A DNA stretch of 64,000 nucleotides from Gemmatimonadales bacterium (GTDB lineage: Bacteria > Gemmatimonadota > Gemmatimonadetes > Gemmatimonadales > GWC2-71-9): assembly GCA_040901965.1 (NCBI GenBank), contig JBBDYB010000005.1, positions 31,345 through 95,344 on the forward strand, given 5' to 3'. The first letter of the stretch is position 1, and every line of letters begins with the position of its first letter. Positions 38,788-59,434 of this stretch are shown piece by piece. The position numbers were made by a program, and so were the translations under genes. The notes beneath the pieces are model-generated. The model was not told the origin of the DNA and did not search any database. It saw only the letters and a program-made list of their open reading frames with translations.

Positions 38788-38817
38788 TGTAGGGGCGCAG
38801 CATGCTGCGCCCCTACA
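38788..38817. repeat. perfect 30-nt palindrome TGTAGGGGCGCAGCATGCTGCGCCCCTACA (REP-like / terminator hairpin after thrS)
   Basis: Read directly from the sequence. It is self-complementary over its full length and lies 28 nt after the thrS stop. It generates the spurious 'MLRPYK' ORF start. Confidence 0.75.
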
Positions 38818-38846
38818 AACCGCATCACAACGATGATTCGGATCCT

Positions 38847-40013
38847 ATGACACACGACCAAACCACACCCGTAATTTTGTCCGCCTGCCGCACCCCCGTC
38901 GGGCGGTACCTGGGCGGCCTGTCGCCGCTGCCCGCCCCCAGGTTGGGCGCCCTGGTCATCCGCGAGGCCGTGCGTCGAGCGGCGATCGCCGACACCGCCG
39001 TCGAAGAAGTCATCATGGGCAACGTGCTCCAGGGTGGGGAAGGGCAGGCGCCGGCGCGCCAGGCGGCGATTCACGCGGGACTGCCCGGGACGATTCCGGC
39101 GCTCACGATCAACAAAGTGTGCGGCTCGGGGCTCAAGGCGGTGATGCTCGCCGCGCAGGCGATCAAGGCGGGCGACGAACAGTGCATCGTGGCGGGCGGG
39201 ATGGAGTCCATGTCGAACGCGCCGCACTACGTGTTCGGGATGCGCACGGGGATCAAGGCGGGCAACACGCAGCTCGTGGACGGCATGATCCATGACGGCC
39301 TGTGGGATTCGTTCTCGAATACGCACATGGGCAACCTCGCCGAGTACACCGCGAAGAAGGCGGGCGTGTCGCGCGCCGACCAGGACCAGTTCGCGTTGGA
39401 GAGCCACCGCAAGGCGGTGAAGGCGATGGAGGCGTGCAACTTCAAGGCCGAAATCGTGCCGGTCGAGACTCTCTCCAAGGACGAGTCGCCGCGCGCCGAT
39501 ACATCACTGGAGAAGCTCGCGTCGCTCAAGCCTGTGTTCCAAAAAGACGGCACCGTCACGGCGGGCAACGCGCCTGGCCTCAACGACGGCGCCAGCGCGC
39601 TCGTCGTCACGTCGCTTGCGTTTGCCACAGCGCATGGCCTCAAGCCGATGGCCAGGATCACGGCTTATGCGACGGGCGGCGGTGAGCCGAAGGAGATCTT
39701 CTTCGCACCGATCGTGGCGGTGCAGAACCTCATGAAGAAGATGGGCACCAATATCAACGACTACGATCTCATCGAAGCGAACGAAGCATTCGCGGTCCAG
39801 GCGCTCGCCGACGGCCGCGCCCTCGGCTGGGATTGGAGTCGCGTCAATGTGCATGGTGGCGCCGTCGCCCTCGGCCACCCCATCGGCGCGTCGGGCGCGC
39901 GCGTCCTCACGACGCTGCTGTACGCCCTGAAGCACTACGGCAAGAAGACCGGCCTCGCCACTCTGTGCCTCGGTGGCGGCAACGCAGTCGCCCTTAGCGT
40001 GGAGATCTTGTGA
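38847..40013 (+). CDS. acetyl-CoA C-acetyltransferase (thiolase II)
   Basis: 'ILSACRTPVGRY', active-site 'NKVCGSGLKAV', 'NVHGGAVALGHPIGASG', 'LCLGGGNAVAL'. Confidence 0.92.
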   Translation: MTHDQTTPVILSACRTPVGRYLGGLSPLPAPRLGALVIREAVRRAAIADTAVEEVIMGNVLQGGEGQAPARQAAIHAGLPGTIPALTINKVCGSGLKAVMLAAQAIKAGDEQCIVAGGMESMSNAPHYVFGMRTGIKAGNTQLVDGMIHDGLWDSFSNTHMGNLAEYTAKKAGVSRADQDQFALESHRKAVKAMEACNFKAEIVPVETLSKDESPRADTSLEKLASLKPVFQKDGTVTAGNAPGLNDGASALVVTSLAFATAHGLKPMARITAYATGGGEPKEIFFAPIVAVQNLMKKMGTNINDYDLIEANEAFAVQALADGRALGWDWSRVNVHGGAVALGHPIGASGARVLTTLLYALKHYGKKTGLATLCLGGGNAVALSVEIL

Positions 40014-40645
40014 TGGATCAAGCAATCGTCATTGGACGTTCTACATTGGCCATTCGCGCCGGCGCGGTAGCGCTCGGCGCGCTCCTCGTCGCGGCCGCGG
40101 CGCAGGTGGCCGTCCCGCTTCCGGGCACACCCGTTCCGATGACGCTCCAGCCGCTCGCCGTGCTGCTCGTCGGCGGCCTGCTCGGCGCCCGGCTCGGCGC
40201 GCTAAGCATGATTCTTTATCTGGCGATGGGCATCGCGGGACTCCCCGTCTTCACGCCGACCGTGCCCCTCGTGGGCGTGGCGCGGCTCATGGGACCGACG
40301 GGCGGCTACTTGCTCGCGTATCCGGTCGCTGCGTTTGTGGTAGGTAGGTTTTCTGACCCCGGGCGCAAGCCCGGGGAAAACCCAAACCCGGCGTCGGCGT
40401 CTTTCAACCCCGGGCTTGCGCCCGGGGTTAGAGAACCCTATTGGCTGCGAGTGGGGCTCGGTGTGCTCGCCGGCCTCGTCCTCATTCATCTGGGTGGCCT
40501 GGCACAGCTCCTGATTATCACCGGGAGCGTCTCGGTGGCGGCGAGGTTCGGAACGCTACCGTTTCTGCTAGGCGATCTCTTTAAACTGGTGATCGCGGTG
40601 GCGATCCTTGCCAAGCTGGCCCCCTCGATTCGCGCGCGCCTCTGA
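40010..40645 (+). CDS. bioY: biotin transporter BioY (with ~30-aa in-frame insertion)
   Basis: 'VPLPGTPVPMTLQPLAVLL', 'GPTGGYLLAYPVAAFVVG'. The start is GTG 40010 or ATG 40013, overlapping the thiolase stop. Confidence 0.85.
   Translation: MMDQAIVIGRSTLAIRAGAVALGALLVAAAAQVAVPLPGTPVPMTLQPLAVLLVGGLLGARLGALSMILYLAMGIAGLPVFTPTVPLVGVARLMGPTGGYLLAYPVAAFVVGRFSDPGRKPGENPNPASASFNPGLAPGVREPYWLRVGLGVLAGLVLIHLGGLAQLLIITGSVSVAARFGTLPFLLGDLFKLVIAVAILAKLAPSIRARL
40347..40437. mobile_element. MITE/REP-like element with ~30-nt terminal inverted repeats inside bioY
   Basis: The left end is GGTTTTCTGACCCCGGGCGCAAGCCCGGGG. The reverse complement of the right end is GGTTCTCTAACCCCGGGCGCAAGCCCGGGG, matching 28/30. 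Each end contains its own hairpin CCCCGGGC-GCAA-GCCCGGGG. Confidence 0.65.
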
Positions 40646-41514
40646 TGGCGCGCGTTTCGTTTGCGGGAGTGAAGCACGGCGGGATCGCGGTCCTGTGGGT
40701 CCTGTTGTTCGCCGCGATCAGTATCGGCGTCATCATCGGGCTTTCGGAAGTTGCCGCGGGCTGGGGCGGCCAGAACTGGCTGATCGTGCGCAATGGCGTG
40801 TACGGACTCATTGGGTTTGGCGTGGCGACGATCGTCGTGGGCAGGCTCCTGAACAAGTACACCTGGGACGGCATGGGATGGCGGGCGCGCACAGGCATTG
40901 CGTTCGCCCGCGGCGTCGCGCTCGGCGGCGTAATGTCGATCGTCGCAATCCTGCTGGCCGTCGTCTTGGGCGCGCGTGTGCACATCACCAGTGACGGGAG
41001 CGCGTGGGCGGGCGTCGCCCTGCCGTTGTTCCTCGGGCTGGTCCTGTCCGCAGTGGCCGAGGAGCTGGCGTTCCGCGGCTACCCGCTGCGCCGGTTCGCG
41101 GATGGGGTGGGCGTCCTGCCGGCCATGCTCGTGATCGCCGTGCTGTTCGGCCTCGCGCACGCGGGCAATCCCAATGCGACGGTCTTCAGCATCGTCAACA
41201 TCGGCCTCGCGTCGTTGTGGCTCTCGGTTGCGTTCTTCTCGCAGGGCGGGATGGGGCTCGCGTGGGGTGCGCACCTCGGTTGGAACGCCGGACTCGCGCT
41301 GCTGTTCGACGCGCCCGTGAGCGGCTTCGACTTCACGGTGCCGGTCGTCGAATACATGCCGGGCAACTATGCGTGGGTGGACGGCGGTGCGTTCGGCCCC
41401 GAGGGCGGCATCGTCACCACGATCTCCCTGATCGCCGGCACGCTCTATCTCCTCACGCGCGCGCGCGGCTTCGCGCTGCCCGAACCCGCGGTGCCGACCG
41501 AGGTCGCCGCGTGA
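40645..41514 (+). CDS. CPBP-family intramembrane glutamic endopeptidase (CAAX protease-like)
   Basis: '[17 protein letters not shown]' (EExxxR), 'FGLAHAGN' (FxxxH). Polytopic membrane protein. Confidence 0.85.
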
Positions 41515-47974: not shown

Positions 47975-48051
47975 CTCGAATCGAGGACCTGGTTGGGGCC
48001 GTAAGAGGTGGGTCTGGATCGCAAAGACGGAGATCCGTCTGGTCGTCGTTT

Positions 48052-48136
48052 ATCCGTGTCCTAAAGGACCGGCTCGGCCACTTCACACGCCCTTAAGGGC
48101 GCGCGCCTTCGCCGAGCCGGCGCTTCAGCGCACGGT
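48052..48136 (+). repeat. REP-like structured hairpin unit, copy 1 (85 nt)
   Basis: The sequence is ATCCGTGTCCTAAAGGACCGGCTCGGCCACTTCACACGCCCTTAAGGGCGCGCGCCTTCGCCGAGCCGGCGCTTCAGCGCACGGT. Outer arms are ATCCGTG/CACGGT and CCGGCTCGGC/GCCGAGCCGG. Nested palindromes are GTCCTAAAGGAC, CGCCCTTAAGGGCG and GCGCTTCAGCGC. Confidence 0.85.
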
Positions 48137-48163
48137 CATATCAACGTTGCCCCCCGATCGTTT

Positions 48164-48248
48164 ATCCGTGTCCTAAAGGACCGGCTCGGCCACTGCACAC
48201 GCCCTTAAGGGCGCGCACCTTCGCCGAGCCGGCGCTTCAGCGCACGGT
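48164..48248 (+). repeat. REP-like structured hairpin unit, copy 2 (85 nt)
   Basis: Identical to copy 1 at 83/85 positions by direct comparison. A 27-nt spacer separates them. Confidence 0.85.
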
Positions 48249-48276
48249 TAATTCAAGGGTGACCAGTCCATCCTTG

Positions 48277-48801
48277 ATCCGTGTCCTAAAGGACCGGCTC
48301 GGCCACTACACGCGTCCTTAAGGACGCCGGGTGCGCTCATTTGGTTGGTTCGCCTTGAGCCGCCCCGATATCCTCGACCATGCCTTTCCATCTTTACGCG
48401 CATCTCTCGTGGACAACCTGGGGACGCCTGCCGCTGATCGACCAACAAGTCGCGAGCTTCCTCGCCCCCTTTCTCCTGGCGGAAGCGAAGCGGCACAATA
48501 CGCGCGTCGTGGAGATCGGGATCGTGCGCGATCACGTGCACATGCTGTTGGAGCTGCCCCCCGCCTACGATGTGCCGCGATTGGTGCAGGGCCTGAAAGG
48601 CGCGAGCGCGCGCCTCGCCAACCGCGATGGGCATTCGGCGCGCAAGAGTCTCCGGTGGGAACCGGGCTACGACTTTCGGTCGGTTGGGATTCGCCAGCTC
48701 CCCAACGTAACCGCGTATGTTCGCGACCAAGAGCTCAAGCACGGGAGCCCACGCCCTTCAGGGCGCGTGTCGTAGCCGAGCCGGCGCTTCAGCGCACGGA
48801 T
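48277..48801 (+). mobile_element. IS200/IS605-like or RAYT unit: Y1 transposase gene bracketed by left and right halves of the REP-like hairpin
   Basis: The left half at 48277-48328 is ATCCGTGTCCTAAAGGACCGGCTCGGCCACTACACGCGTCCTTAAGGACGC. The right half at 48750-48801 is CACGCCCTTCAGGGCGCGTGTCGTAGCCGAGCCGGCGCTTCAGCGCACGGAT. The tnpA-like gene lies between them. Confidence 0.75.
48380..48775 (+). CDS. tnpA: Y1 HUH transposase (IS200-like TnpA / REP-associated tyrosine transposase)
   Basis: HUH motif 'RDHVHMLLELPP'. Motifs 'LKGASARL' and 'RWEPGYDFRSVG'. Catalytic Tyr region 'VTAYVRDQELKH'. 131 aa. The 3' end runs into the right REP half. Confidence 0.8.
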   Translation: MPFHLYAHLSWTTWGRLPLIDQQVASFLAPFLLAEAKRHNTRVVEIGIVRDHVHMLLELPPAYDVPRLVQGLKGASARLANRDGHSARKSLRWEPGYDFRSVGIRQLPNVTAYVRDQELKHGSPRPSGRVS

Positions 48802-55002: not shown

Positions 55003-55088
55003 GTCCGTGCCCTAAAGGGCCGGCTCGGCTACTGCACGCGTCCTTAAGGACGTGTGTCTTGGCCGAGCCGGCGCTTCAGCGCACGGAT
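55003..55088 (+). repeat. REP-like structured hairpin unit, copy 3 (diverged, with compensatory changes)
   Basis: The sequence is GTCCGTGCCCTAAAGGGCCGGCTCGGCTACTGCACGCGTCCTTAAGGACGTGTGTCTTGGCCGAGCCGGCGCTTCAGCGCACGGAT. The sub-hairpins CCCTAAAGGG and CGTCCTTAAGGACG differ from copies 1 and 2 by paired substitutions that keep complementarity. Confidence 0.8.
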
Positions 55089-58792: not shown

Positions 58793-59434
58793 ATGCACGA
58801 GCCGGCCGTCGTCCTCACCGATCTCGTGCTCGCCATCCTGGGCGCGGTGCTGGGCTGGCGGCTGACGGGGCAGGGCCGCGTCATCCTGGGTGGGCTCGCG
58901 AGTGCGGCGTTTTGGGGCGCGGTGTTTCATGCGTTTTTCCCCGCCCGCACAGCCACGACCGCCGGCTTCATCGCGTGGCTGCTAGTAGCCGTTTCGATCC
59001 TCGTCGTCGCGGCGGGATTGTTGGATTTGGCTTTGACCATGCTCATGGCTCGGCTGACCCCGGGCGGCAGCCCGGGGAGCACCAGAGCACGTCGCGCCAT
59101 CGTCCTCGGGTACTGCGCCGTCTTCCTCGCCCTCCTTCTGTTCGTTGACGAGTCATTCTCCATGATCGTGCGGCTGTACGCGCCGATCCTCCTGCTCGCG
59201 CTCGCGGCCGCGGCGCTCGAGGCGATCCGCGCGCGCAGCCGGGCCTGGGCGCTTGTCGCGCTCGGCCTGACGCTGTCCGCGGCGGCCGCGCTGCTGCAGC
59301 AAGCGCGCGTCGCGCTCCATCCGGTCTATTTCGACCACAACGCGGTCTATCACGTCGTGCAGGCCGCGGCGCTGGTGGTCCTGTACGTGGGATTCCATGA
59401 ACGCCGAACGGATTCAGCAGCTCGCGCGGGATGA
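58793..59434 (+). CDS. hypothetical polytopic membrane protein
   Basis: About seven hydrophobic segments. C-terminal 'YFDHNAVYHVVQAAALV'. No confident family assignment. Confidence 0.6.
   Translation: MHEPAVVLTDLVLAILGAVLGWRLTGQGRVILGGLASAAFWGAVFHAFFPARTATTAGFIAWLLVAVSILVVAAGLLDLALTMLMARLTPGGSPGSTRARRAIVLGYCAVFLALLLFVDESFSMIVRLYAPILLLALAAAALEAIRARSRAWALVALGLTLSAAAALLQQARVALHPVYFDHNAVYHVVQAAALVVLYVGFHERRTDSAARAG

Follow-up and report, generated by a model that had tools for sequence, protein, structure and literature searches.

The REPIN/RAYT system, in which repetitive extragenic palindromic (REP) sequences occur as hairpin-forming doublets (REPINs) together with a REP-associated tyrosine transposase (RAYT), was described by Bertels & Rainey in 2011 (PMC3116915). 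The REPs of Pseudomonas and Escherichia coli are G+C-rich palindromes of 20 to 30 nt, one end of which is marked by a conserved tetranucleotide. They occur in many scattered copies, commonly paired in inverted orientation across a short spacer so that the pair can form one long hairpin, and repeats facing opposite ways flank the gene of a small Y1 HUH transposase. Di Nocera et al. described intragenic REPs in 2013 (PMC3733652); more than half of these were dimers, which encode 20 to 30 residues. The same paper summarised the Rickettsia palindromic elements (RPEs), which are palindromic repeats lying in frame in genes that stay intact. Here, we report a 91-nt inverted-repeat element within the biotin transporter gene bioY of a Gemmatimonadales bacterium, found in a 64,000-nt stretch of contig JBBDYB010000005.1 (the window). 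Its family resembles the Pseudomonas and E. coli systems in each of the traits listed above, and the element is very probably a non-autonomous REP doublet with REPIN architecture, carried as a tolerated passenger in the loop between transmembrane helices 4 and 5 (TM4-TM5) of BioY.

The element (40347-40437, plus strand) comprises two 30-nt arms, 40347-40376 (GGTTTTCTGACCCCGGGCGCAAGCCCGGGG) and 40408-40437 (CCCCGGGCTTGCGCCCGGGGTTAGAGAACC), separated by a 31-nt spacer (40377-40407, plus strand; peptide ENPNPASASF(N)). A preliminary description of this DNA had reported the arms to be complementary at 28 of 30 positions, and the repeat finder returned the same figure (93%); both mismatches become G-U pairs in plus-strand RNA. 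Each arm is one copy of a 20-nt G+C-rich palindrome with a CTGA/CTAA tag and about 6 flank bases, the two copies being inverted relative to each other. In the left unit (40347-40376, plus strand; peptide (R)FSDPGRKPG), the flank GGTTTT and the tag CTGA (40353-40356) precede the core CCCCGGGC-GCAA-GCCCGGGG (40357-40376). In the right unit (40408-40437, given on the plus strand; peptide (N)PGLAPGVREP), the core CCCCGGGC-TTGC-GCCCGGGG (40408-40427) is followed by the inverted tag TTAG (40428-40431) and the flank AGAACC. The GNRA loop proposed for both arms is therefore present in the left arm (GCAA, coding strand), but the right arm carries its complement, TTGC. Tag and core of the left unit match the family pattern given below without mismatch, as does the right unit on the minus strand.

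Taken singly, each arm forms an 8- to 10-bp DNA hairpin (left, −12 kcal/mol, z = −4.75; right, −13.2 kcal/mol, z = −4.79), and the whole element folds as DNA into one long hairpin (−38.9 kcal/mol, z = −7.05). The structure predicted for the mRNA is very stable, at −75.7 kcal/mol versus −43.5 ± 4.1 kcal/mol in shuffled sequences (z = −7.8), with none of 200 shuffles as stable. The reading frame passes through the inserted segment without a stop codon (peptide ...GRFSDPGRKPGENPNPASASFNPGLAPGVREPYW...), as first described, and the core, read directly from the sequence, is stop-free in all six frames.

The host gene (40013-40645 in the open reading frame [ORF] list, plus strand) encodes 210 aa, or 211 aa from an alternative GTG start at 40010. 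It was identified as bioY by Pfam (PF02632) and by 100% identity to a protein annotated as "MAG: biotin transporter BioY [Gemmatimonadales bacterium]". The protein aligns with the Lactococcus lactis BioY structure 4DVE (E = 2e-9) over residues 23-113 and 151-202, leaving residues 114-150 unaligned, where the query has 37 residues and the structure 19. The predicted structure is poor (AlphaFold; mean predicted local distance difference test score [pLDDT], 49; predicted template modelling score [pTM], 0.29); in it, residues 115-143 form a coil that joins helices 95-114 and 144-170. S-components have six helices and an N-in topology. With this topology, and with Arg/Lys on both sides of the insert, the TM4-TM5 loop that holds the insert should face the cytoplasm.

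Copies of the repeat were sought with the pattern ACCCCGGGCGNNAGCCCGGGG in one genome per species (185,579 species), and all counts are lower bounds. At least 143 matches were found in at least 120 loci; among the matches listed, at least 100 (77 loci) lie in Gemmatimonadota/Gemmatimonadales metagenome-assembled genomes. In these 100, the tetranucleotide ahead of the core is CTGA in 53 cases and CTAA in 12, the loop is GCAA in 58, and a T-run follows the core in just one, versus 8 of the 43 matches listed from other phyla. The latter look like ordinary terminators or local repeats because, besides the eight T-runs, their flanks are unrelated and their loops different. Several Gemmatimonadales genomes carry many loci (e.g., SMAG_U8601, with at least 5 loci and at least 8 matches). 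The doublet also recurs as a unit: inverted pairs with 29- to 32-nt spacers were found at unrelated loci (L087, L123, L164, and L115), as well as upstream of a thiolase gene in L012-L014 and L040-L043. The bioY repeat is a member of a dispersed REP-type family, not a private feature of bioY.

Within the window, the 20-nt core has three matches at up to 3 mismatches (0.05 expected), corresponding to three hairpins of this CTRA-CCCCGGGC family. The preliminary description had found no second copy in the window; that is correct for the full 91-nt pair, but a single hairpin of the same family lies at 59054-59077 on the plus strand (CTGACCCCGGGCGGCAGCCCGGGG, i.e., CTGA-CCCCGGGC-GGCA-GCCCGGGG). It is read in frame (LTPGGSPG) within ORF 58793-59434, a DUF6962 membrane-protein gene (Pfam E = 2.5e-23). 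The 7-aa segment TPG(G/A)SPG is present in a subset of DUF6962 orthologues and is missing from the closest one (P0122, 85% identical).

In related genomes, copies of the family flank a Y1 transposase gene on both sides, which is the REP/RAYT layout. Two loci, L120 and L160, each hold a five-copy cluster with a small ORF between copies, and these ORFs (L120:4483-4971 and L160:2019-2423) match Pfam Y1_Tnp (IS200-like; E = 6.6e-20 and 6.8e-17). In L120, copies 3926-, 4022-, 4104-, and 4453- lie upstream of the gene and 4883+ downstream; in L160, copies 1736-, 1823-, and 1910- lie upstream and 2423+ and 2487+ downstream, so that the repeats abutting the genes are 4453-/4883+ and 1910-/2423+, respectively. 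Homologues were found by tblastn in L192 (87%), L173 (56%), and L177 (54%). With the gene on the minus strand, repeats 875+ and 445- abut it in L192 and repeats 4083+ and 3637- in L173, while L177 ends within the transposase gene and the upstream copy 7791- is the only one visible. Flanking on both sides in opposite orientations is thus seen in all four complete transposase loci, whose genomes also carry family copies at further loci. The nearest solved structures to these enzymes are the ISDra2 and IS608 TnpA proteins. Taken together, the dispersed copies and the Y1 gene that they flank in related genomes (five in all, the fifth with one side visible) bear out the earlier reading of a REP-like element inserted in frame and count against its being unique and without mobile-element hallmarks. 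The label "MITE/REP-like" (MITE, miniature inverted-repeat transposable element) is best kept for its REP half, since association with an IS200-like HUH tyrosine transposase speaks for a REP/REPIN and not for a shortened DDE insertion sequence. The 3′ end of the L120 transposase ORF runs through the downstream REP copy (...FSDPGRKPGVQARG...), so the tail of this transposase is itself repeat-encoded.

The window has a Y1 transposase gene of its own (48380-48775, plus strand; IS200-like, 131 aa; NCBIfam, 65 bits), which was rejected as the cognate enzyme: it is 31% identical to the L120 enzyme and adjoins a different palindrome family. This second REP/transposase locus consists of the Y1 gene placed just 3′ of three units of the form CCGTGTCCTAAAGGACCGGCTCGGCC...CGCCCTTAAGGGCG (repeats at 48050-48326), and a further copy of that repeat lies 6 kb away at 55004-55087.

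The closest 120 relatives of the window BioY are Gemmatimonadales proteins of 59 to 83% identity, most with DPGRKPG...NPGLAPGV at the same place. The private, recent insertion implied by the preliminary description can thus be set aside, as most close orthologues have some form of the element at this site. Eighty metagenome loci encoding relatives were fetched, and loops, delimited in the DNA by the conserved motifs GGYLLAYP and H(L)GG, were read in 77 sequences (76 loci plus the window). Loops of 30 aa hold no hairpin; those of 35 to 39 aa hold one, in either orientation and with varied hairpin loops; those of 53 to 54 aa hold the inverted pair, including the window form (54 aa); and those of 69 to 96 aa hold tandem multiples (L004, L018, L036, and L037). 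A perfect hairpin of at least 7 bp is present at the loop site in 51 of these 77 orthologues (60 to 83% protein identity). As predicted, relatives lacking the palindrome also lack the extra residues (30 aa versus 54 aa here), and the corresponding connection in 4DVE is shorter too.

Pair (54 aa) and single (37 aa) differ by 17 codons, or 51 nt, which equals the spacing of direct repeat D1. Because each arm is palindromic, the two arms are also direct repeats, and because they stand 51 nt apart as such, slippage from arm to arm would explain the 17-codon step with the frame kept. The site also shows rapid change in other ways. In L010, the flanks GGTTTTCTGA|AAACC are kept and the 20-nt hairpin is gone, which is a clean loss of the hairpin; the close relatives L004 and L037 have three and four units. 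The near-identical genes L045 and L074 differ in the left flank and the loop of the hairpin, and in L074 the left flank is now the complement of the right flank (TGTTAACCCCGGGCTGGCAGCCCGGGGTTAACA), forming an extended perfect palindrome, as expected from template switching within a palindrome. Copy number in the bioY loop changes between near-identical genes. In a neighbor-joining tree of the BioY core (172 columns), the loop states are intermingled, and the tree is too noisy for counting gains and losses.

Nine bioY doublets, the window included, were compared. The spacer is 31 nt in six of them and 34, 82, and 94 nt in the rest, with no conservation of sequence, and in all nine, each arm keeps a fully paired (8/8) local 8-bp stem. 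In L002 (GGGC to GCGC) and L022 (GGGC to GGAC), a double change in one arm keeps that arm's own hairpin and breaks the pairing between arms. The maintained unit is the single local hairpin, as would be expected if a Y1 transposase recognises hairpins one by one. Template-switch correction within the palindrome, a process that needs no selection, would also account for it. One flank position covaries between arms (T/A in the window, G/C in L014, and A/T in L003, L007, and L012), so the pair as a whole is not irrelevant either.

Residence within genes is not peculiar to bioY. A strict through-coding test was applied, in which a frame had to be open over 60 codons on each side with coding-like G+C content at third codon positions (GC3) on each side, and random positions in the same loci served as the control. 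Of 92 testable Gemmatimonadota copies, 16 passed, versus 55% of random positions. The family avoids genes, as REPs do, and most copies are extragenic; corrected for test sensitivity, the intragenic share is roughly between one-fifth and one-quarter. An initial ORF-based estimate of more than one-third was lowered after this stricter two-sided test with its random-position control.

Pfam confirmed the in-frame host genes, with domains that flank the hairpin or extend across it. The genes encode HypF (L097), PurH (L135), QueG (L138, with the identical site in L121 and L117, making three genomes), CtaA/COX15 (L178, also L148 and L150), and, with a pair rather than a single copy, a UPF0004/radical-SAM enzyme (L156, also L123). 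Across genes, the core is translated in all six frames (PGRKPG, PGASPG, PRAQARG, PGLAPG, PGLRPG, and PRACARG). The family thereby resembles those REP families whose intragenic singles and dimers encode about 7 to 30 aa (PMC3733652).

These observations can be joined into one account. A Y1 transposase would recognise the hairpin on single-stranded DNA and mobilise copies in trans, and one such copy may have inserted among the bioY codons for the TM4-TM5 loop, which is predicted to be cytoplasmic. The insert would have been tolerated because all six frames of the core are free of stop codons, and it would have been kept as a Pro/Gly-rich hydrophilic linker (DPGRKPG/NPGLAPG). Later in-frame steps may have followed, with slippage between the arms taking out or adding 17 codons, and further changes at the site would have come from tandem multiplication, hairpin loss, and exchange for other palindrome families. 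A dedicated role of the copy in biotin transport is improbable; what it brings is a longer loop and a very stable structure in the mRNA.

Several points weigh against this account. We infer both the mobility of the family and the cleavage of its hairpin by the transposase from sequence, and a cognate transposase of the family was not found within the 64-kb window. The L120/L160-type enzymes pass the NCBIfam IS200/IS605 TnpA model (66 bits; cut-off, 55 bits) and stay below the cut-off of the curated REP-associated model REP_Tyr_transpos (30.8 bits; cut-off, 80 bits), unlike classical RAYTs. The tag of the family is CTGA/CTAA, not the GTAG or CGTC of classical REPs and of the Di Nocera classes. 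Hairpin occupancy of one loop in two-thirds of the orthologues read exceeds what a purely neutral passenger would obviously predict. Finally, the extra residues track the palindrome across orthologues, but the alignment did not yield the insertion boundaries: empty loops share a motif, (R/A)(E/D)G(R/S), that is replaced rather than interrupted in occupied ones, and about 24 nt are exchanged with no clean insertion, leaving the original junctions unreadable.

The explanation that competes most seriously with a tolerated REP doublet is that the hairpin is a selected RNA structure in the bioY mRNA, kept for that whatever its mobile origin, either as an RNase barrier or target (a 30-bp stem suits RNase III) or as a pause in translation that helps helix 5 to insert into the membrane. 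The stability of the RNA fold and the number of orthologues with a perfect hairpin both speak for it, the double changes in L002 and L022 keep the local stems paired, and the presence of at least three unrelated palindromes in the same loop of other orthologues might reflect convergence. However, template switching or copying from family members can produce paired changes in a palindrome without RNA selection, and the same hairpin occurs in many unrelated genes and, mostly, between genes. Regulation of the mRNA, which the preliminary description had offered as an alternative, is further weakened because close relatives have none, one, two, or up to five hairpins in either orientation, with no single structure conserved. 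A scan of 39500-41200 against Rfam (E up to 1) gave no match, and a terminator and promoter scan found the element not terminator-like and without a terminator-like tail. We regard selection for an RNA structure as unlikely.

Two further explanations fare worse. With its small size (91 nt) and 30-nt terminal inverted repeats, the element could pass for a classical MITE, a deletion derivative of a DDE insertion sequence moved by the transposase of that element; like bacterial MITEs such as the Correia elements and Nezha, it is small, non-autonomous, and foldable as RNA, and it is intragenic, as those sometimes are. Unlike a MITE, it lacks a target-site duplication, with no direct repeat shared by its flanks (GTGGTAGGTA | element | CTATTGGCTG), each of its "terminal repeats" is a self-complementary hairpin that also occurs singly, and the gene flanked by family copies encodes a Y1 HUH enzyme and not a DDE one, all of which makes a MITE origin very improbable. 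Least credible, to the point that we give it almost no weight, is that the Pro/Gly-rich loop is an ancestral protein-level trait of this BioY clade with an incidental DNA palindrome. Many orthologues do conserve the peptides DPGRKPG and NPGLAPGV, as would be expected of such a trait, but the same nucleotide core is found in every frame among other genes and also in intergenic DNA, and both the in-clade orthologues with 30-aa loops and the L. lactis structure are without the extension. The CCC/GGG codons of the hairpin are minority Pro/Gly codons elsewhere in these genes, a comparison of little weight that is partly circular, as hairpins were picked by sequence.

The loop holds at least two, and probably three, palindrome families unrelated to the CTRA-CCCCGGGC family. 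The L077 loop (1049-1110) carries a pair of GCGCCCT..AGGGCGC hairpins, also found at L149:346-405, L149:1301-1360, and L150:527-600, which form another dispersed family and resemble the repeats adjoining the window's own Y1 transposase gene. The L028 loop carries GTAGGGGCGCAGCATGCTGCGCCCCTAC, a palindrome that occurs as well in L003, L059, L075, L152, and L188 and, in the window, as a perfect 28-nt GTAG-tagged copy at 38789-38816 (−16.7 kcal/mol, z = −6.9, folded as DNA) within the intergenic stretch that precedes the thiolase-like gene. In L021, L048, L055, L057, and L058, the loop has a hairpin CCCCCTCTCCGC-loop-GCGGAGAGGGGG followed by TCAGGGGGTGAGGAC (PPLRSAERGSGGED); no CCCCCTCTCCGC..GCGGAGAGGGGG hairpin was found outside bioY within the DNA sampled here. 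With several unrelated palindromes in it, the TM4-TM5 loop is at least very permissive. Beyond that, the loop-coding site may be a preferred landing or retention site, with Y1-transposase-driven REPs of Gemmatimonadales as a regular source of in-frame variation in the loop length of proteins, a suggestion that we think improbable.

The surroundings of bioY offer a parallel. The stop codon of the upstream thiolase-like ORF (38802-40013) overlaps the bioY start (GTGATG at 40010), and a CPBP/Rce1-like protease gene (40645-41514; Pfam PF02517) begins within the bioY stop. Neither bioM nor bioN adjoins bioY, which therefore seems to stand alone in an unrelated operon. Immediately ahead of the thiolase gene, some 1.26 kb 5′ of bioY, an inverted pair of the CTRA-CCCCGGGC family is found in six orthologous loci (L012:8751-8820, L013:1327-1397, L014:3499-3570, L040:3263-3333, L041:8744-8814, and L043:4341-4411). 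In the window and three other loci, the GTAG palindrome is about equally far upstream of bioY (1.2 to 1.3 kb for GTAGGGGCGCAGCATGCTGCGCCCCTAC in L003, L059, and L075). The spot before the thiolase gene seems to be another place in the bioY operon where palindromes land repeatedly.

Set against the described systems, the bioY copy departs from classical extragenic REPs by lying within a gene, and the family belongs to the Gemmatimonadota rather than to Pseudomonas or E. coli; a literature search for REPs in Gemmatimonadota returned nothing relevant. Like RPEs, the element is a palindromic repeat in frame in an intact gene, to which it adds a peptide segment. RPEs are longer and A+T-rich and belong to an intracellular alphaproteobacterium, and no sequence relation to the bioY element is expected. 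Intragenic REPs are already known, and the bioY element works like those and opens no new class of mechanism.

What the findings add concerns the host group. REP/Y1-transposase systems are present in soil Gemmatimonadales, a group for which nearly all knowledge comes from metagenomes, and the hairpins of these systems are stop-free in all six frames and often built into proteins. For annotation, Pro/Gly-rich extras of 7 to 30 residues in these proteomes are to be read as repeat-encoded, not as lineage-specific functional motifs. For evolution, the bioY loop provides a natural series, from empty through one and two to as many as five units and with other families besides, that allows repeat gain, slippage, and loss to be traced. 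The unusually busy state of this loop is the point worth following: were it a preferred site, that preference would act by targeting of existing hairpins or by selection for a structured or longer loop, and the repeats there would be more than tolerated junk.

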